A DNA stretch of 43,555 nucleotides from a virus (taxonomy: Duplodnaviria; Heunggongvirae; Uroviricota; Caudoviricetes), in IMG/VR virus record IMGVR_UViG_2563366965_000004, one strand, 5' to 3'. The position numbers and the translations under genes are program-made. Below the pieces are notes generated by a model. The model was not told where the DNA came from and did no database searches. It worked only from the letters and a program-made list of their open reading frames with translations. Shown piece after piece: positions 18,788 through 26,498 of this stretch. Within the stretch, counting starts at the first letter, position 1; the number at the start of each line of letters is the position of its first letter.

Positions 18788-19105
18788 ATGGCAAAGCGTA
18801 TGAATGACGACCACAAAATTGTAGGCCTGTCCTGGTTAGTCCTGCTCGGCATTGCATGCTGGGGCGGTTTAGTTCGCTACCTGATCGACGTAAAGCAGAA
18901 TAAAGCGACATGGAGCTGGATAAACGCGCTGGCACAGATCGCTGTCTCCGGCTTTACCGGTTTGATTGGCGGGTTGATAAGCGTGGAGAGTGGGTTGAGT
19001 TTTCACATGATCCTTGTCACGTCCGGCATTAGCGGGGCGATGGGTTCAGTGGCTCTGACCTATTTCTGGGAACGCTTGACGGGGATGAAGAATGCAAACC
19101 AGTGA
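18788..19105 (+). CDS. Holin
   Basis: 105 aa from ATG 18788 (GGAGG RBS); hydrophobic helices (LSWLVLLGIACWGGLV; IAVSGFTGLIGGLI; ILVTSGISGAMGSVAL); directly precedes the endolysin. Confidence 0.7.
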   Translation: MAKRMNDDHKIVGLSWLVLLGIACWGGLVRYLIDVKQNKATWSWINALAQIAVSGFTGLIGGLISVESGLSFHMILVTSGISGAMGSVALTYFWERLTGMKNANQ

Positions 19106-19532
19106 TAAAGGCATTGCCCTGATCAAAGAGTTCGAAGGTTGCAAGCTCACTGCCTATCAGGACAGCGTCGGCGTTTGGACGATCGGTTATGGCTGGACTC
19201 AGCCCGTCGACGGGAAACCAATCCGTGCCGGGATGACAATTAAGCAGGAAACGGCAGAACGCCTGCTGAAGACAGGAATGGTCAGTTACGAAAGTGACGT
19301 GTCACGACTGGTTAAAGTTGGCCTGACTCAGGGGCAATTCGATGCCCTGGTGTCGTTCACGTATAACCTCGGTGCGCGGTCATTGTCGACATCGACTCTC
19401 CTGCGAAAACTCAACGCCGGAGATTACGCTGGTGCAGCCGATGAGTTCCTGCGCTGGAATAAAGCTGGTGGGAAGGTGCTGAATGGGCTGACACGTCGGC
19501 GGGAGGCAGAGCGAGCTCTGTTCCTGTCATGA
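19092..19532 (+). CDS. Endolysin, phage lysozyme (GH24-like)
   Basis: [26 protein letters not shown] catalytic Glu/Asp/Thr motif of T4/P22-type lysozymes. Confidence 0.9.
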
Positions 19533-19999
19533 TTAGCGCACTGGTTAAGCGTTACTGGCTGCAGTTGCTGGTGCTGGCGTTAATCGGCGCACTGGCTTTC
19601 TTCGTGAACCACTACCGCGACAACGCCATCACTTACAGAGACCAGCGCGATAAGGCCACTGAGAAACTCCTCCTGGCGACCGCCACCATTAAAGACATGC
19701 AGACCCGCCAGCGTGATGTCGCTGCACTGGATGCCAAATACACCGGAGAACTGGCTGATGCGAAAGAAACCATTGAGCGTCTGCATAGCGATGTCATTGC
19801 TGGCCGTAAGCGGCTGCAGCTCAACGCAAACTGTCCCGCGAACGGAACGACCAGCACCGGCGGCCTGGGCGATGTTACCGGCCCCCGACTTACTGACTCC
19901 GCTGAACGGGATTATTTCACCCTCAGAGAGCGAATCGTCACAGTGACGAAACAGGTTGGATATTTGCAGGAATACATCAAAGAGCAGTGCTTAAATTGA
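19529..19999 (+). CDS. Rz-like i-spanin
   Basis: N-terminal membrane anchor, coiled-coil body, position after the endolysin, and an embedded Rz1 reading frame. Confidence 0.75.
19758..19946 (+). CDS. Rz1-like o-spanin lipoprotein (embedded in Rz, +1 frame)
   Basis: Lipobox LLAVSGC, Pro-rich mature region; ATG 19758 with GGAGA RBS. Confidence 0.7.
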
Positions 20000-20031: not shown

Positions 20032-20436
20032 ATGCAAATAGATCAAGAATACCTTAAAGGTTTGCTCGAGGCTTTCGAGGCATCGGATTCACCTGATACC
20101 GATATTATTCGATTAAATGATTTAGGGTTCAATTGTGAAACTGACACATTTGTGTTTCATATGCGTTTGCTTGAGGATAGAGGGCTGATTATCAGGAGTG
20201 ATGGAGAGCCCGGCTTTGGTGCTATTCAGTCTTTAGACGGAATGACTCACTGGGCTGTAATGCCCTTGCGATTGACCGCGATGGGGCATGACTTCTTGGA
20301 TGCTCTCCGTAACAAAGAGGTTTGGGCAACATTAAAAACCGGATTCAAAGATGCCAGTATGGGCACGCTGATGACAGTTTCGAAGGAGCTGTTTAACCGA
20401 GCTCTAGCTAAGCAACTTGATAAAATGTTCGACTAA
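20032..20436 (+). CDS. Hypothetical accessory protein (134 aa)
   Basis: Own GGAGGGG RBS and terminator immediately downstream; lower GC than the lysis genes. Confidence 0.5.
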   Translation: MQIDQEYLKGLLEAFEASDSPDTDIIRLNDLGFNCETDTFVFHMRLLEDRGLIIRSDGEPGFGAIQSLDGMTHWAVMPLRLTAMGHDFLDALRNKEVWATLKTGFKDASMGTLMTVSKELFNRALAKQLDKMFD

Positions 20437-20458: not shown

Positions 20459-20512
20459 TGTCAACTTTATGAGCAAACTGATCTTAATTACTGTAACTAG
20501 GTGGTCAATGAT

Positions 20513-21151
20513 ATGGCAACGCTTAAGGACCTTTCCAGTCAGTTAAGACAGCTGCAGAAGCAAATACCGTTTGCGACTGCCCAGGCTATGACTAAAGTGG
20601 TTCGCCAGATAGAAGCGGCCCAAAAAACAGCATTTGAGCGGAATCTGGATAATCCAACACCTTTTACAGTTAAATCGGTTGGGTCAGTTGGTGCCAGGAA
20701 AAACAGCCTTCGTGCGAAGGTGTTTGTTCGTGATACTGCTGCTGGTTACCTTGAACCCTTCGAGTTCGGCGGAGAGCACAAGCTTAATGGTAGTGCTTTG
20801 CTTAACCCGAAAGACATAAAGCTTAATAAATACGGCAACCTGCCGCGTAATAAGCTCTCTCAGCTCAAAGCAAAGGAAAATGTATTCGTAGGTGAGGTGG
20901 ATGGCGTTAACGCTGTCTGGCAGCGTAAGAAACCGATGAAAGCTAAGAAGCGACGGGCCAAGCGCTCCGCTAATGGGACGCGAAGACCGAAACGCAAACA
21001 GCGTTCTCCAAAGCTTTTGATCCGGTTTGGTGATGCGCTACCTGTGACTCCAGTGCTGGGGTATATGGATAGGTCCCATACCATGGCGAACGCACTGCTA
21101 CCGTCTGCTTTAAATCAGGCGATAGCAGAAGCCATCAGGACGGCAAAATAA
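20513..21151 (+). CDS. Hypothetical protein with highly basic segment (212 aa)
   Basis: ATG 20513 with AGGTGG RBS; Lys/Arg-rich stretch KKPMKAKKRRAKRSANGTRRPKRKQR. Confidence 0.45.
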   Translation: MATLKDLSSQLRQLQKQIPFATAQAMTKVVRQIEAAQKTAFERNLDNPTPFTVKSVGSVGARKNSLRAKVFVRDTAAGYLEPFEFGGEHKLNGSALLNPKDIKLNKYGNLPRNKLSQLKAKENVFVGEVDGVNAVWQRKKPMKAKKRRAKRSANGTRRPKRKQRSPKLLIRFGDALPVTPVLGYMDRSHTMANALLPSALNQAIAEAIRTAK

Positions 21152-21161
21152 AAGCAGTAAC

Positions 21162-21665
21162 TTATAAGCTAATTTCGCAAGCTTTTATGAAGCTGTTTAC
21201 TGCAGTTGTCGATCCAGAAACATTGGCTGACATGGAATGCTGGTTTCCGCCATCCTTTGTTTGCACACCAACTAACACTTTGGATTTCGCCCCCTGAAGC
21301 TGCTTAAGCACTGTTTTTAGTTGGTCCGCGTCATCCGATTGAATCTGGAGGCTCTGAACATTACGTCTTGAAAGGGTAGCATCGAGCTTCACTGCGGTAT
21401 TCCCGTCGACCTTCATTATCAGGTCCATTGGTACCTCTGATAGTGATTCGGTGCTTTTATCCATTTCAACGTATGCCGCCGATAGCTTTTCTTTAGTGCA
21501 GTCAAACACAATGGCGCCATTGTCGGATGAAACCTCGCCAAGCATCATTGCTTTCTTACCACCAGAGAAAAGGTCATCTTCAGTATTAGTTACCCACTGG
21601 GCATGAGCAATTGGTGATGCCAGCACTGCGGCTACGAAAGTTATTTTGATTATATTGTTACCCAT
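21162..21665 (-). CDS. Exported (signal-peptide) protein, putative lysogenic-conversion gene
   Basis: ATG at 21665 with AGGAGA RBS; N-terminus MGNNIIKITFVAAVLASPIAHA-QW is a type-I signal peptide; opposite strand to the flanking late genes. Confidence 0.6.
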   Translation of the reverse strand: MGNNIIKITFVAAVLASPIAHAQWVTNTEDDLFSGGKKAMMLGEVSSDNGAIVFDCTKEKLSAAYVEMDKSTESLSEVPMDLIMKVDGNTAVKLDATLSRRNVQSLQIQSDDADQLKTVLKQLQGAKSKVLVGVQTKDGGNQHSMSANVSGSTTAVNSFIKACEISL

Positions 21666-21750
21666 TACATTCTCCTTGTATTGAATAGGAATAATCATAG
21701 TCGGAGCGAATGGTCGAAGCCATTAAAAAATGGGTCCTTCCTGAGACTTT

Positions 21751-21785
21751 TGTAAGGTACGGGCATTGCGCGCCGCGGTGTTTTC
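21751..21785. other. Putative cos site (cosN-like core at 21761-21772)
   Basis: GTAAGGTACG-GGCATTGCGCGC-CGCGGTGTTTTCC parallels lambda cos (CAGGTTACG-GGGCGGCGACCT-CGCGGGTTTTCGC, recalled); core lies 194 nt upstream of the small terminase start versus about 190 nt in lambda. Confidence 0.5.
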
Positions 21786-21807
21786 CTAGCTACAACTTTC
21801 AGATTTG

Positions 21808-21958
21808 TGTCCCATGTCCCACCTCTGGCGATCATTACGGACACCTCGCCAGCTCTGGCTATTCCAGTTTATTCCAGTGGGACATTCTGGTGGGACATGG
21901 CAAAAATGTCCCAGGCGAATGTCCCACCCCAGAAAATGTCCCAGGTGATGTCCCATGA
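21808..21958. repeat. TGTCCCA repeat array (candidate cosB small-terminase binding sites)
   Basis: At least eight copies of (A)TGTCCCA in direct and inverted orientation (21808-21824, 21877-21900, 21901-21958) between cosN and the terminase start. Confidence 0.6.
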
Positions 21959-22524
21959 CCACGATGAACCAGAGTCAGTACGCACAACATTCAGGTGTGG
22001 ATCGCAAAACAATTGGCCGGTGGATTAAAGCCGGGCGCTTCATTGTGATGGACGGAGACCTGATTGACGTAGAGGCCAGCGATGCGGCATTGAAGAAAAA
22101 CCGCGATGGCAAAGACCCGCGCGCCTCGAACGCGAAGAAAAAGAAAACTCCCGTCGTTAGCGATAACGATGATGACGGTGATGAAATCAATAAAACTGTC
22201 CGCCAGATAATGCTCACTGAAGGGGCAGATCTTTCGAGAGAGGAAGCGGGACGTATCCGCGAGAATTACATGGCCCTGCAGGCAAAGCTGCAGTATGAAA
22301 AAGACAGCGGCCAGCTTATTGAGCTGACAGCAGCCGAGGAGGTTTTATTCAACGCCTTTCGCCAACAGCGTGATGCCTGGCTTAACTGGCCGTCCAGGGT
22401 GGCGCCGCTAATGGCTGCTGATCTGGATGTACCGGCGGACAGGATGACAGAGGTGCTGATTGAACATGTCCACAAACACATCTCAGTCCTCGGAGAGCCA
22501 GAGTTTAACCCGGCAGAAGATTGA
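21955..22524 (+). CDS. Terminase small subunit (Nu1-like)
   Basis: N-terminal HTH (YAQHSGVDRKTIGRWIKAGRF) as in lambda Nu1; directly upstream of and overlapping the large terminase. Confidence 0.75.
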   Translation: MTTMNQSQYAQHSGVDRKTIGRWIKAGRFIVMDGDLIDVEASDAALKKNRDGKDPRASNAKKKKTPVVSDNDDDGDEINKTVRQIMLTEGADLSREEAGRIRENYMALQAKLQYEKDSGQLIELTAAEEVLFNAFRQQRDAWLNWPSRVAPLMAADLDVPADRMTEVLIEHVHKHISVLGEPEFNPAED

Positions 22525-24589
22525 GCGTCTTGAATTAAGCGTCCGCAAAGGCTGGACACCCCCGCCGCGTATCAGTGTGCCGCAGTGGGCAGATGACTAT
22601 CGTAAGCTGGCAAAAGAGGCTGGGAGCACTTCGGGAAACTGGGAAACATCGACGGTAGAAATTGCCCGCGGACCGATGCTTGCCGCGACGGAGTCCGGGG
22701 TTCATATCATCACTGTAATGTGCTGTACCCAGTTGATGAAGACAGCACTGCTGGAAAACCTTTTTGGCTATTTTGCCCACCTCGATCCTTGTCCGATACT
22801 GCTGCTGCAGCCGAAAGAAGAAGCCGCTGAACAGTTTTCGAAAGAGCGTATTAGCCCGCTGGTAAGGGTGACGCCGGTACTGCGTAAAATCATCGGTGAT
22901 TCGAAACAGAAAAGCTCGAAAGAAACCATTCTTTACAAGGCATTCACTGGCGGATTTCTGGCGCTGGCGGGTGCTGGTAGCCCTGATAACCTTGCGCGTC
23001 GTCCGATTCGTGTCCTGCTGGCGGATGAAGTGGACAAGTACCCGATAACCCGCGAAGGCGATCCAATTGCGCTGGCCGAAGAGCGTACAGCGACATTTGG
23101 CCTGACCTGGCTGTCTGTACGCGCCTGTTCGCCGACGGTGGAGGATGAGAGCCGCATTGCTGACAGCTACGCCGACTCCGATCAGCGCCGGGCATCTGTG
23201 GTTTGCCCGCACTGTGGCCACCGCCAGTTCCCCGACTTTTTCAAACACGTTCAGTGGCCGAAAGAGGGAGATAAACACCTGACTAAATCGGCGATGCTCT
23301 ATTGCGAATGCTGTGGTAGTGGCTGGTCCGAAGGACAGCGCCTCAGAGCTCTGCACACTATTCGATGGCATCAGACGCGCCCATTTGAGTGCTGCGGGGA
23401 GCGGCACTCACCGCTGATGGATTATGACCTTGCCTGGCGGGCGGCAGACGAGGGCAGCGTTGAAAAGGTCTGGCAATGGTCAGAGTCGGAACGGCATGCG
23501 GTCTATCGCGCAATCTGCCCCTCCTGTGGAAAGGAGGCAGTCGATAACCACCACGCGGGGTACCAGGCATCCAAGCTTTTCAGCCCCTGGCAAAAAGATA
23601 AGCCGTCGGATATTGCGAAAAAATATATCGATGCGAAGGGCGATCCGGATAAGGAACAGGCGTGGTGGAATACCCAGATGGGGCTTCCGCACCGACCTAA
23701 TCATGGGAAACAGCTCCCTGTTGATGTTCTGCTGGCGCGCCGGGAAATATTTCCGGCCGTCGTTCCGGACGGGGTGGCATTGTTAACAGCTGGAGTTGAT
23801 ACCCAGGACGATCGCTTCGAAATTACGATCACCGGCTGGGGGAGAGATGAAGAATCGTGGTCGGTCGCGCATGACGTTATTTATGGTGACCTTGAGACGG
23901 AAGAACCCTGGAAGCGACTGGATGCATACCTGAAACAGATCTGGCGACGTGGTGACGGGCGCGGCCTGAATATCATGGCAACGTGCATGGACTCCGGCGG
24001 CCACCATACGCAGAAGGTATACGAATTCGCCAAAGAGCGTCTTGGCCGTCGTGTCTGGGCAATTAAGGGGGAGTCTGCACAGGGAGGCAAACGCAATCCT
24101 GTCTGGCCGACCAAACGACCATCATCGAAAAGCAAAGCCAGTTTCCGCCCTGTCATTCTGGGGGTTAACTCAGCGAAAGACGTGATACGCGGTCGCCTGC
24201 ATCTTGAGCCACCCAAACCTGGCGCCGCCGCTGCGGGTTATATGCATTTTCCTGACGATCGCGATCTCGGGTACTTCAATCAGCTGCTGGCGGAGCGACT
24301 GGTTTACAAAGTCATTTCCGGGCAGCGGTACAGTATCTGGGAAGCAATACCAGGACGAGCTAACGAAGCGCTTGACTGCCTCGTTTACAGCTATGCCGCG
24401 CTGTGCGGTCTCAAACATATGGGGTTAAAACTCAACGTCCGGGCCGCCAACCTCGAAGCCGATCCGGATAAGTTCCTGCCAGCGCCAGTTGGACAGGAAG
24501 AAAAAATCAATTACGAGCTGCCGGGTGCGGTTATTGAAGAACCAGCGCCGGTCAAACGTAAGCGAATATCGCAACTCCTGCCGAAATAA
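22460..24589 (+). CDS. Terminase large subunit (lambda gpA-like)
   Basis: Matches to lambda A as recalled: CPHCGHRQFPDFF (Zn finger), LTAGVDTQDDRFEITITGWGRDEESW, NEALDCLVYSYAAL. Confidence 0.95.
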   Translation: MNMSTNTSQSSESQSLTRQKIERLELSVRKGWTPPPRISVPQWADDYRKLAKEAGSTSGNWETSTVEIARGPMLAATESGVHIITVMCCTQLMKTALLENLFGYFAHLDPCPILLLQPKEEAAEQFSKERISPLVRVTPVLRKIIGDSKQKSSKETILYKAFTGGFLALAGAGSPDNLARRPIRVLLADEVDKYPITREGDPIALAEERTATFGLTWLSVRACSPTVEDESRIADSYADSDQRRASVVCPHCGHRQFPDFFKHVQWPKEGDKHLTKSAMLYCECCGSGWSEGQRLRALHTIRWHQTRPFECCGERHSPLMDYDLAWRAADEGSVEKVWQWSESERHAVYRAICPSCGKEAVDNHHAGYQASKLFSPWQKDKPSDIAKKYIDAKGDPDKEQAWWNTQMGLPHRPNHGKQLPVDVLLARREIFPAVVPDGVALLTAGVDTQDDRFEITITGWGRDEESWSVAHDVIYGDLETEEPWKRLDAYLKQIWRRGDGRGLNIMATCMDSGGHHTQKVYEFAKERLGRRVWAIKGESAQGGKRNPVWPTKRPSSKSKASFRPVILGVNSAKDVIRGRLHLEPPKPGAAAAGYMHFPDDRDLGYFNQLLAERLVYKVISGQRYSIWEAIPGRANEALDCLVYSYAALCGLKHMGLKLNVRAANLEADPDKFLPAPVGQEEKINYELPGAVIEEPAPVKRKRISQLLPK

Positions 24590-24597
24590 GGAAAATC

Positions 24598-24861
24598 ATG
24601 TTCAACCGGAACACCAGCCTGCTTGCCGGCGCAATGACTGACGATCAGCTCAGGGATGCGCTTGCGAAAGCTCAGCAGGCGTACATTGATTTAGCAACCG
24701 GGAGCCACGGTGTTTCGTTTTCCTATACGCAGGGAGACGGGACGCGATCAGTGTCCTATCAGCAAAGCACCCTGGCTGATCTGCTGGCCCTGATTCAACT
24801 TCTGCAGGCGCAACTGGGGATTATCTCTCGTCCCCGGAAACCAGCGAGGTTTAGATTCTGA
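24598..24861 (+). CDS. Head-tail joining protein (gpW-like)
   Basis: 87-aa ORF between terminase and portal; C-terminal RPRKPARFRF resembles the gpW tail. Confidence 0.6.
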   Translation: MFNRNTSLLAGAMTDDQLRDALAKAQQAYIDLATGSHGVSFSYTQGDGTRSVSYQQSTLADLLALIQLLQAQLGIISRPRKPARFRF

Positions 24862-26498
24862 TGAATAAAGTACAGATACTGGGCTCTGATGGGCAGCCGT
24901 TGCGACAGCAGCGTCCCTCTATGCTGGTGGGGGGGAGCCGCGTACCTTATGACGCCGCTGACTCTTTCAGCGATCAACTGGCGAACTGGCAACCCGCGCT
25001 GTGGTCCCCGGACAATGAAATTAACATTTACCGGGATCGCATCGTGTCCCGCGCACGCGATCTGGTCCGTAATGACGGCTGGGCAAACGGTGCGGTCACA
25101 CGTCTGCTGGATAATGCGGTTGGTGCCAACTTCCGCCCCATCATGAAACCCGATTACCGTGTTCTCAGAATGATCACCGGAAACAAGGCGTTTGATGCGT
25201 CCTGGGCGGAAGAGTACGGAAAAGCACTGGACGGGCACTGGCGGACCTGGAGTAACGATCCTGGCCGGTATTGTGATGTTGAACGAAAACTCACCGTGTC
25301 GCAGATGTTGCGCCTGGGATTTCGTCACAAGCTTATTGACGGGGATGCTCTGGCCATTCTCCAGTACAGAACTGACAGGCTTGGTCCCGGAAGAGGGCGT
25401 TACGCCACCACGGTACAGATTGTCGATCCTGACCGCCTCAGTAATCCTCAGCAGAATTTCGATATGCCAAATGTCCGTGGTGGCGTTGAAATTGATGCGG
25501 ACGGTGCGCCGGTTGCTTACCACATCAGGGAGGCCCATATCGGTGACTGGTGGAGCGGGGCTAAAACCATGACGTGGCAGCGTATCCCGCGTGAAACTGA
25601 CTGGGGCCGCCCGCATGTGGTTCACGATTTTGATCATGAGCGTGGCGCGCAGCACCGCGGTAACGGCATCCTGACTCCGGTTATTCAGCGTCTGAAAATG
25701 CTGGTGAAGTATGACCAGAGTGAGCTTGAGGCAGCAATTCTTAATGCCATATTCGCCGCTTACATTGAGTCACCCTATGACCCTGCGATGGTTCAGTCTG
25801 CCCTGGGCGAGACCTATGACGAGTCGGAGTTAGGCACTTATCAGGACGGGCGTGTTGAGTTCCATAACGATCGGCGTCTGACACTTCAGAATGGTGCCCG
25901 AATGCCCATTCTTTATCCTGGTGAGAAAATCACGACGGTTAACGCGGCGCGGCCCTACAGCAATTTTGAAGTCTTCGAATCTGCTGTTCTCCGTAATTTT
26001 TCTTCAGGAACAGGGTTGTCCCCACAGCAGGTCACCCAGGACTGGTCTGACGTTAACTACAGTTCTGCACGCTCCTCGTTGCTGGAGGCATGGAAAACAC
26101 TGACTCGCCGCCGGGACGATTTTTCTACCGGCTTCGCTCAGCCCATTCTCACCGCCTTTGTTGAAGAAGTTCACGACAATGAGGATTTACCCCTGCCCGC
26201 AGGCGCACCTGATTTTGTTGACGCCAGAGCCGCGTATTCTCGCGCGCGCTGGATGGGGCCAGGGCGCGGCTGGGTGGATCCGGTTGCAGAGAAAAAAGGC
26301 GCCATTCTTGGTCTGGATGCCGGACTTTCCACCCTCGAGATTGAGGTGGGTGAAAACGTCGGTGAAGACTGGGAAGAAGTGCTTGATCAGCGCCAGAGAG
26401 AAATTGAGTCATGTCTTAAACGCGGATTACCGCTTCCGAGCTGGGCACAGGCTGACCAGTTTGCGAGCCAGACCATTACCGATCCGGAGGAAAAGTGA
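24861..26498 (+). CDS. Portal protein (lambda gpB-like)
   Basis: Motifs shared with lambda B as recalled (DLVRNDGWANGAV, CDVERK.T, QIVDPDRLSNP, AAILNAIFAAYIES). Confidence 0.9.
   Translation: MNKVQILGSDGQPLRQQRPSMLVGGSRVPYDAADSFSDQLANWQPALWSPDNEINIYRDRIVSRARDLVRNDGWANGAVTRLLDNAVGANFRPIMKPDYRVLRMITGNKAFDASWAEEYGKALDGHWRTWSNDPGRYCDVERKLTVSQMLRLGFRHKLIDGDALAILQYRTDRLGPGRGRYATTVQIVDPDRLSNPQQNFDMPNVRGGVEIDADGAPVAYHIREAHIGDWWSGAKTMTWQRIPRETDWGRPHVVHDFDHERGAQHRGNGILTPVIQRLKMLVKYDQSELEAAILNAIFAAYIESPYDPAMVQSALGETYDESELGTYQDGRVEFHNDRRLTLQNGARMPILYPGEKITTVNAARPYSNFEVFESAVLRNFSSGTGLSPQQVTQDWSDVNYSSARSSLLEAWKTLTRRRDDFSTGFAQPILTAFVEEVHDNEDLPLPAGAPDFVDARAAYSRARWMGPGRGWVDPVAEKKGAILGLDAGLSTLEIEVGENVGEDWEEVLDQRQREIESCLKRGLPLPSWAQADQFASQTITDPEEK

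Follow-up and report, generated by a model that had tools for sequence, protein, structure and literature searches.

A candidate cos site with a TGTCCCA repeat array in a prophage packaging module of Enterobacterales

The described systems closest to the one presented here are the cos sites of phage lambda and of Serratia phage vB_SspM_BZS1 (BZS1). In lambda, the cores of the R sites, CGTTTCC, lie at positions 53 (+), 114 (-) and 155 (+), with the IHF site I1 near position 79, and R2 is inverted relative to R3 and R1 (PMC4669245). Phages are called lambda-like in the strict definition of Feiss when their overhang is close to GGGCGGCGACCT, and the overhangs of N15 and gifsy-1 differ at 2-3 positions (PMC4669245). 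BZS1 has 5' cohesive ends with the overhang GCATTGCGCGCC, as determined with PhageTerm on virion reads and confirmed by comparing a prophage-junction polymerase chain reaction product with the ends of virion DNA; the paper maps these ends and does not describe cosQ, cosB or repeats (Bujak et al. 2020, PMC7556043). In the searched literature, GCATTGCGCGCC appears as a phage cohesive end only in that paper, the one other paper containing the string being concerned with unrelated RNA-RNA interaction methods. The locus discussed here lies in a viral DNA stretch of 43,555 nucleotides (IMG/VR record IMGVR_UViG_2563366965_000004; hereafter the window, meaning the whole stretch). Its region 21731-21955 very likely comprises the whole cos of a temperate enterobacterial myovirus prophage, lambda-like in organisation and recognised by the terminase small subunit (TerS) through an array of TGTCCCA repeats in the way proposed below. 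Its cosB specificity has not been described before, and it belongs to the same kind of mechanism as the cos sites of lambda-type terminases.

The cosN-like string GTAAGGTACG GGCATTGCGCGC CGCGGTGTTTTCC is found at 21752-21786, exactly where the first-pass annotation of this DNA had placed it as a parallel to the lambda cosN junction. That parallel stands at the level of motifs, the flanks TACG...CGCGG-GTTTTC being 12 nt apart in both the window and lambda, and it is joined by homology to the mapped junction of BZS1; the overhang originally read from it, GGCATTGCGCGC, was one base too far left. The linear BZS1 record (MT843275.1) carries an annotated cosL at positions 1-12 that reads GCATTGCGCGCC, and its joined ends, which read ...ATGGGTCCTTCCCTGCACTTTTGTAAAGCACGG, then GCATTGCGCGCC, then GCGTTCTGCGTCTAGCTATCAACTTTTGAAATTTGG..., are collinear with 21730-21807 of the window. 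Because the same 12-mer and homologous flanks occur in BZS1, the window site is the homologue of an experimentally mapped cos. The predicted nicks most likely follow 21762 in the top strand and 21774 in the bottom strand, with an uncertainty of +/-1 nt for the window prophage; this BZS1-based register, 21763-21774, differs by one base from the earlier 21762-21773. That the window prophage itself would be cut at 21763-21774 is what we infer from this homology.

The window contains just two copies of the cosQ heptamer GGGTCCT, one of which starts 31 nt before the BZS1-mapped nick (30 nt before the nick as first placed). Lambda has the identical heptamer at 48473-48479, equally far from its nick. 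The cosQ block forms the left boundary of the conserved packaging module, homology to some Escherichia coli relatives opening at 21731, position 82 of the query. The heptamer is also present in six relatives found independently of the motif, by BLAST or protein similarity, namely E. coli HS, 100416, MIN9 and LR881940 together with BZS1 and Citrobacter phage phiNP, and these six provide the independent support for cosQ and cosN. The spacer that leads from cosN to the first repeat is kept in all four cosB types, type-specific sequence starting right after it, and may extend cosN or serve as a host-factor site. Further right, the ATG of terS lies 192 nt from the BZS1-mapped start of the cohesive end and 194 nt from the nick as first placed, Nu1 of lambda starting at 191. 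The resemblance to lambda in this spacing, which had been pointed out at first reading, holds for the window and is not a feature of the family, as the terS ATG of BZS1-type relatives lies only 74 nt from the end.

Downstream of the conserved spacer, the TGTCCCA heptamer is concentrated to a degree well beyond its frequency in the remainder of the stretch. The 43.5-kb window holds 10 copies, where shuffling gives a mean of 5.7, and 8 of the 10 fall inside 148 bp (21808-21955), an interval in which 0.019 copies would be expected (Poisson P ~5e-19 for eight copies); copies with one mismatch were sought in 21700-22000, and none was found. At least eight copies in both orientations, reaching up to the terminase start, had been reported at first, and the count is exactly eight, six on the plus and two on the minus strand, with the last overlapping the ATG of terS at 21955. 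The repeat core is 8 nt, ATGTCCCA, and an A stands at position -1 in seven of the eight copies. Measured from a BZS1-type left end, the sites lie at +46 and +53 in forward orientation, at +116 and +129 in reverse, and at +145, +158, +175 and +187 again in forward orientation, with the ribosome-binding site AGGTGA between the last two repeats. Each cosB type carries a tandem pair of its own motif at the proximal position, directly after the conserved spacer (for example GGTAACAGGTAACA in type B), and the inverted repeat I3, CCATGTCCCACC / GGTGGGACATGG, is 100% complementary. Open reading frames called over the repeat region (21710-21958, 21807-22028 and others) were rejected as artefacts of the repeats, and RefSeq annotates no coding sequence there. 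Literature searches for TGTCCCA together with terminase returned only unrelated primer sequences, and neither a TGTCCCA array nor the cosQ or cosB of this phage group is described in the searched papers.

The array is also conserved. In 45 distinct type-A sequences, identity to the window stands at 99.1% for the repeat positions and at 81.9% for the interspersed ones (Mann-Whitney p=6e-11), in a comparison limited to sequences with at least five repeat copies and to that extent mildly biased. The first proximal copy has a mean identity to the window of 100% and the second of 98%, and the distal repeat positions reach 98-100%. The repeats are under purifying selection, and the constraint on them is stronger than that on the bases between.

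Arrays of short repeats, direct and inverted, typify operators and origin iterons, and the last repeats of the window overlap the ribosome-binding site and start codon of terS, so that the array might be taken for the operators of a transcription regulator, or for iterons, serving the terminase and head operon and not for a packaging signal. Set against this are a scan of 21500-22100 that found neither a sigma-70-like promoter nor an intrinsic terminator, and the location of the site within the late region, 3' of Q and the lysis genes, with the replication genes about 12 kb away. TerS is, moreover, the sole neighbouring protein that covaries with the repeats, which the product of the upstream gene does not, and in BZS1-type relatives the distal repeats lie inside terS, an odd place for an operator and one that parallels rR2 of N15 (PMC4669245). 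A regulatory or replicative role is accordingly a very improbable explanation of the array, and a packaging signal is the reading that is followed here.

The evidence that ties the repeats to packaging comes from their covariation with TerS. Relatives were surveyed with the pattern TGGGTCCTTCC-N18-CGGGCATTGCGCGCCGCG in IMG/VR and in one genome per species, which gave more than 120 IMG/VR contigs and 25 species representatives, loci in which cosQ and cosN are conserved by construction, having been fetched by the exact pattern. When intergenic region and TerS are taken together, 80 distinct combinations share this cosQ and cosN, and in them the type of a putative recognition helix in TerS and the repeat motif partition perfectly, with zero cross-occurrence: RKTI[GTS]RW is found with TGTCCCA (6-9 copies), RKT[VA]TxWK with GGTAACA (3-7 copies), RQALYxWE with GTGTCAA (6 copies) and RRAFYNWES with GTGTGAA (4-5 copies).

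Individual relatives show which part of the terminase the motif follows. BLAST identified four diverged relatives in E. coli, three of which retain the TGTCCCA array and differ mainly in the spacer. The fourth, LR881940, has kept cosQ, cosN and the conserved spacer, but GGTAACA in both orientations replaces TGTCCCA. Its large terminase subunit (TerL) is 91% identical to that of the window and the C-terminal ~70 residues of its TerS are ~96% identical, whereas the N-terminal domain of TerS differs, with roughly 40% identity over the first ~118 residues as read from the alignment. BZS1 and phiNP have a TerS N-terminal domain of the same type as LR881940 and also carry GGTAACA repeats. In type C, the TerS is 68% identical to that of the window over the N-terminal 57 amino acids and 13% over the C-terminal 72, and the spacer DNA is unrelated, but TGTCCCA is still present. 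Taken together, the exchange in LR881940 and the composition of type C indicate that the motif tracks the N-terminal domain of TerS and no other part of the terminase. Between types D and D', each copy of the repeat is altered at one base (GTGTCAA and GTGTGAA, respectively), and the helix is changed in parallel. As a control, the protein encoded by the upstream phrog_1924 gene is 88% identical between a TGTCCCA and a GGTAACA locus; it does not covary with the motif, and the phrog_1924 gene is therefore not the specificity determinant.

Together with the two effects of sampling given above, several results weigh against the site being a cos recognised by TerS through its repeats. Over the whole site, similarity to lambda is at the background of the window, with 39 of 85 ungapped matches in the correct register against 40 of 85 for the best chance match elsewhere in the window. 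A scan of 21763-21955 found no IHF site, in the form of a match to WATCAANNNNTTR with at most one mismatch, and the same scan recovers lambda I1 at position 79; a lambda-style bend between R3 and R2 is thus not established for the window. Megablast and blastn searches of 50,697 phage records with 21650-22600 found no isolated phage that carries the window DNA, and protein matches in the same collection reach at most 34% identity for TerS and 48% for TerL, the nearest sequenced phages by these proteins being BZS1 and phiNP (TerL 48% identical). Finally, the repeats adjoin the DNA that encodes the N-terminal part of TerS, and part of the covariation could come from inheritance of the two as one block.

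Carried to its end, this last point would make the covariation a hitch-hiking of contiguous DNA, the repeats themselves serving a host nucleoid protein or an intrinsic curvature that aids TerL at cosN. The exchanged block is contiguous, extending from just past the conserved spacer to about codon 118 of terS, and with no IHF consensus in place another architectural element might be needed. Types A and C nevertheless share the heptamer and the RKTI-RW helix despite unrelated spacer DNA and unrelated TerS C-termini, and the concerted one-base change between D and D', over 4-6 copies and together with a change of helix, is difficult to account for unless a protein matches it. A host factor, furthermore, would not need four motifs within one host group, and the bases of the repeats are conserved while the surrounding bases drift. 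Hitch-hiking on its own is improbable, and the link between helix and motif exceeds inheritance of one block, as type C, the single-base classes D and D' and the non-covarying phrog_1924 gene argue. Recognition by TerS remains the preferred account, and the repeats almost certainly tell TerS which DNA to package. The first-pass annotation had regarded them as analogues of the R sites with a sequence unlike that of lambda, and as signs of a distinct packaging specificity. The analogy gains support from the partition of helix and motif in the 80 relatives, from the tracking of the N-terminal domain and from the constraint on the repeats; the distinct specificity gains it from a motif that differs both from the CGTTTCC cores of lambda and from the GGTAACA repeats of BZS1.

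Further observations concern the arrays and terS genes of the surveyed relatives. In short-cosB relatives, such as BZS1 (MT843275.1, 218-303), three GGTAACA copies precede the terS ATG, and one inverted and 5-6 direct copies lie inside terS. The direct copies within the gene are 12 nt, or four codons, apart and encode a low-complexity linker, AGNKQGNKTGNRSSGNKSGNK, in which GGT AAC AAA specifies G-N-K; the putative TerS binding array of these relatives is partly written into the TerS coding sequence, and thirteen other surveyed loci share the arrangement. Within the fourth cosB class, two loci combine TTCACAC with RRAFYNWES and four combine TTGACAC with RQALYTWEA, an apparent case of fine-scale protein-DNA co-evolution. 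In one IMG/VR locus (L067) and one from Ewingella americana (L142), a frameshift at an A10 run or a stop codon in frame breaks terS and cos is intact, reflecting either a decaying prophage or a sequencing error. Two further candidates were discarded: IMG/VR loci that lack a terS open reading frame, considered as cos-only satellites, proved to be truncated contigs or frameshifts, and N-terminal extensions of type C TerS obtained by open reading frame finding are translations of the repeats.

TerS of the window matches phrog_57, terminase small subunit (E=4.6e-36), and has no Pfam match at E<=0.01. None of 39 TerS homologues matches Phage_Nu1 even at E<=1, the only Pfam hits being the sub-threshold HTH_28 and HTH_17, and BLASTP against lambda Nu1 gives E=0.043 over 31 amino acids that cover the helix-turn-helix only. 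A sequence search of the PDB produced only spurious matches, to multi-copy RecA fusion chains. An AlphaFold2 model built with the 39 homologues predicts a confident N-terminal domain of strand, helix, helix and beta wing (predicted local distance difference test score ~77-80), followed by a disordered linker and long helices. The nearest structural neighbours of this predicted domain are the DNA-binding domains of small terminases, that of lambda included, with the winged helices of excisionase, BldC and MerR type next. The winged helix-turn-helix takes up approximately residues 1-50 (21955-22104), and the putative recognition helix, RKTIGRWIK, comprises residues 17-25. The designation Nu1-like that had been given to the gene is thus apt for its position and for its predicted fold, and not for its sequence family by either Pfam or BLASTP. 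The C-terminal ~72 residues fit a putative module linked to TerL: in LR881940, with a TerL of 91% identity, they are ~96% identical, and in relatives with a TerL of another lineage they are unrelated. The family goes under the name hypothetical protein in essentially all entries seen in RefSeq, NCBI and UniRef; it has no Pfam domain, and PHROGs alone recognises it. TerL, in turn, belongs to the gpA family, with Pfam matches to GpA_ATPase (PF05876, E=2.8e-64) and GpA_nuclease (PF20454, E=2.2e-78), 29% identity to lambda gpA (E=2e-60) and 48% to TerL of BZS1; the start assigned by RefSeq is the same ATG.

These features suggest a mechanism in which the eight ATGTCCCA sites of cosB (21808-21955) would be bound by the winged helix-turn-helix domains of an oligomeric TerS, with RKTIGRWIK as the proposed recognition helix. 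Bound TerS would anchor TerL, via the C-terminal domain of TerS, at cosN some 45 bp to the left, where the gpA-family TerL would make staggered nicks that leave the 12-nt 5' overhang GCATTGCGCGCC. Packaging would then proceed rightward into terS, terL and the head genes, and cosQ would serve the terminating cut at the next cos. The binding of TerS to the repeats, its stoichiometry, the path of the DNA (wrapped or bent) and the role of cosQ are what we infer from the comparisons above. A more far-reaching proposal is that at least four interchangeable cassettes, each composed of a TerS winged helix-turn-helix and 6-9 sites of 7-8 bp, sit on one backbone of cosQ/cosN and gpA-type TerL that circulates in Enterobacterales, and read cosB in a way unlike the lambda clamp of a TerS dimer on R3 and R2 bent by IHF. 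This is put forward tentatively and is rather doubtful; it is suggested by the spacing of the sites (7-17 bp centre to centre), by the lack of an evident IHF site and by the GNK-encoded sites in the TerS linker of some lineages. In such a case the DNA could possibly be wrapped round a TerS ring or be covered by a filament joined head to tail, as BldC forms; the DNA-binding domain of BldC is one of the structural neighbours named above.

The coordinates of the site and its neighbourhood are collected in Table 1. The prophage of the window has copies of >99% identity in E. coli chromosomes, a 951-bp query around the site matching 59 of 5,426 complete genomes, and the scan of one genome per species found the same cos pattern in Kluyvera, Raoultella, Citrobacter, Salmonella and other Enterobacterales. 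In E. coli, a near-identical locus holds early genes of lambdoid kind, comprising exo/bet/gam, a LexA-family repressor, replication genes and Q, together with a lysis cassette, a head module of lambda type and a contractile tail, and the genes directly downstream of cos are, in order, terS, terL, gpW and a lambda-type portal.

Table 1. Positions of the cos-site elements and of neighbouring genes in the window; all repeat copies are perfect matches to TGTCCCA, and offsets are counted from the left end.
Feature	Position	Strand	Remarks
cosQ-like element TGGGTCCTTCC	21731..21741	+	holds lambda cosQ heptamer GGGTCCT, 21732-21738
Predicted 12-nt 5' cohesive end GCATTGCGCGCC	21763..21774	+	within cosN (roughly 21757-21780); identical to BZS1 cosL
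Conserved cosN-to-first-repeat spacer GCGGTGTTTTCCTAGCTACAACTTTCAGATTTG	21775..21807	+	family consensus ...CTAGCTAYnAAnTTTTGAATTTG
Proximal tandem pair TGTCCCATGTCCCA	21808..21821	+	copies at 21808 and 21815; 7-nt spacing; +46, +53 from left end; position equivalent to lambda R3
Variable 56-nt spacer	21822..21877	.	position of lambda I1 region; least conserved stretch of type-A alignment
Inverted pair TGGGACA	21878..21897	-	copies at 21878 and 21891; 13-nt spacing; lambda R2 analogue
Distal array of four direct repeats	21907..21955	+	copies at 21907, 21920, 21937 and 21949; spacings 13, 17, 12 nt
Lysis genes	19092-19999		
DUF2513 gene	20032-20436		
phrog_1924 gene	20501-21151		
Open reading frame, phrog_19473 match	21162-21698	-	function unknown
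Intergenic region	21699-21954		256 nt
terS	21955-22524	+	189 aa
terL	22466-24589	+	707 aa from ATG at 22466; 59-nt overlap with terS
gpW	24598-24861		
Lambda-family portal	24861-26498		

The possibility that the site is a relic, in a prophage that is defective or that packages by headful and no longer cuts its cos-like sequence, bears on this setting. Some relatives are decayed, among them E. coli HS, with its truncated integrase and upstream gene, and the two loci with disrupted terS (L067 and L142). The terS and terL frames of the window are intact, however, and in a near-identical relative the lysis, head and tail genes are complete. The 59 complete E. coli genomes, the >120 IMG/VR contigs and the 25 species representatives all carry the module, its repeats are under purifying selection, and gpA-family terminases are cos enzymes, the nearest characterised relative having 5' cohesive ends (PMC7556043). 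A site no longer cut is for these reasons highly unlikely, and a functional cos is the interpretation retained.

Several features of the surroundings stand apart from these questions. The minus-strand open reading frame between the phrog_1924 gene and cosQ has an N-terminus, MGNNIIKITFVAAVLASPIAHAQ, that resembles a signal peptide, and the sequence upstream of cosQ, 21699-21730 included, is unrelated in the relatives examined. Because homology to a subset of the E. coli relatives starts at 21731, with unrelated DNA upstream, this reading frame looks like a moron inserted just left of cos. The phrog_1924 gene is annotated as a minor tail protein and is located upstream of cos, away from the tail genes; for p72, the BZS1 homologue of its product, the same conserved position has been remarked on (PMC7556043). 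In E. coli HS (NZ_CP092639.1, 154-1476), the module adjoins a tRNA-Ser and a truncated pseudogene integrase abuts a truncated phrog_1924 gene; the entire early region of this prophage is deleted, and cos, terS and terL are kept intact. A 226-kb contig labelled Vagococcus sp. WN89Y (NZ_JBQPOM010000071.1) also bears a cos of type A, with 8 copies of TGTCCCA and a TerS that shares 89% identity with that of the window. The module otherwise occurs only in Enterobacterales, and this Firmicute-labelled assembly is probably contaminated or a mislabelled genome.

The site as delineated here provides a precise annotation of cosQ, cosN, cosB and terS for a prophage module carried by ~1% of complete E. 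coli genomes (59/5,426) and by many other Enterobacterales. In every RefSeq locus examined, terS is listed as a hypothetical protein, an annotation gap that runs across many prophages of this order. The group also constitutes a natural experiment, one cutting site being combined with at least four cosB/TerS specificities, of which some pairs have nearly the same TerL (91%), so that swaps of helix and cosB, as made for lambda and 21, are feasible. Knowledge of cos and cosB helps to predict the cross-packaging of prophages, cosmids and satellites, and lets assembled genomes of the group be oriented correctly. The cohesive-end type GCATTGCGCGCC is already known from BZS1, the sole report in the searched literature; the TGTCCCA specificity is new and would not be surprising to a specialist.

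Compared with lambda, the window shares the tripartite cosQ-cosN-cosB organisation, a 12-nt 5' overhang (predicted in the window) and a TerL of the gpA family. The sites run forward, reverse and forward in both, the first lying at +46 in the window and R3 at +53 in lambda, and in both terS begins about 190 nt from the end, overlaps terL and encodes a winged helix-turn-helix (predicted in the window). Unlike lambda, the window has eight sites of 7-8 bp instead of the three R sites of lambda cosB, it has no recognisable IHF I1 site, its TerS is not Nu1 by sequence, and its TerL is only 29% identical to gpA. The overhang GCATTGCGCGCC matches GGGCGGCGACCT at 5 of 12 positions, or at 3 of 12 in the register first proposed. 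With a cohesive end so unlike that of lambda, the phage of the window falls outside the strict lambda-like definition, though it works like one.

The likeness to BZS1 is closer and encompasses the 12-mer GCATTGCGCGCC, the cosQ block TGGGTCCTTCC placed 18 nt before CGG/G, the conserved spacer, a tandem heptamer pair at +46 to +55, the gpA-family TerL (48%) and a TerS of the phrog_57 family. The two differ in that BZS1 combines GGTAACA repeats with the TerS helix RKTVTSWKA and the window TGTCCCA with RKTIGRWIK, and in that only three of the BZS1 repeats precede terS (ATG at +75), the others lying inside the gene.

The group of the window forms a phage lineage separate from that of lambda, 21, N15 and Monarch; it has a cohesive end unlike that of lambda and at least four motif classes. 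It nonetheless repeats much of what has been described for those phages (PMC4669245). N15 and Monarch have simple and complex forms of cosB for one specificity, and type B likewise has a short and a long form; rR2 of N15 lies inside the TerS gene, as do the GGTAACA copies of the short-cosB relatives; and lambda, 21, N15 and Monarch, like the group presented here, carry interchangeable cassettes of cosB and TerS helix on one shared cosQ and cosN (PMC4669245).

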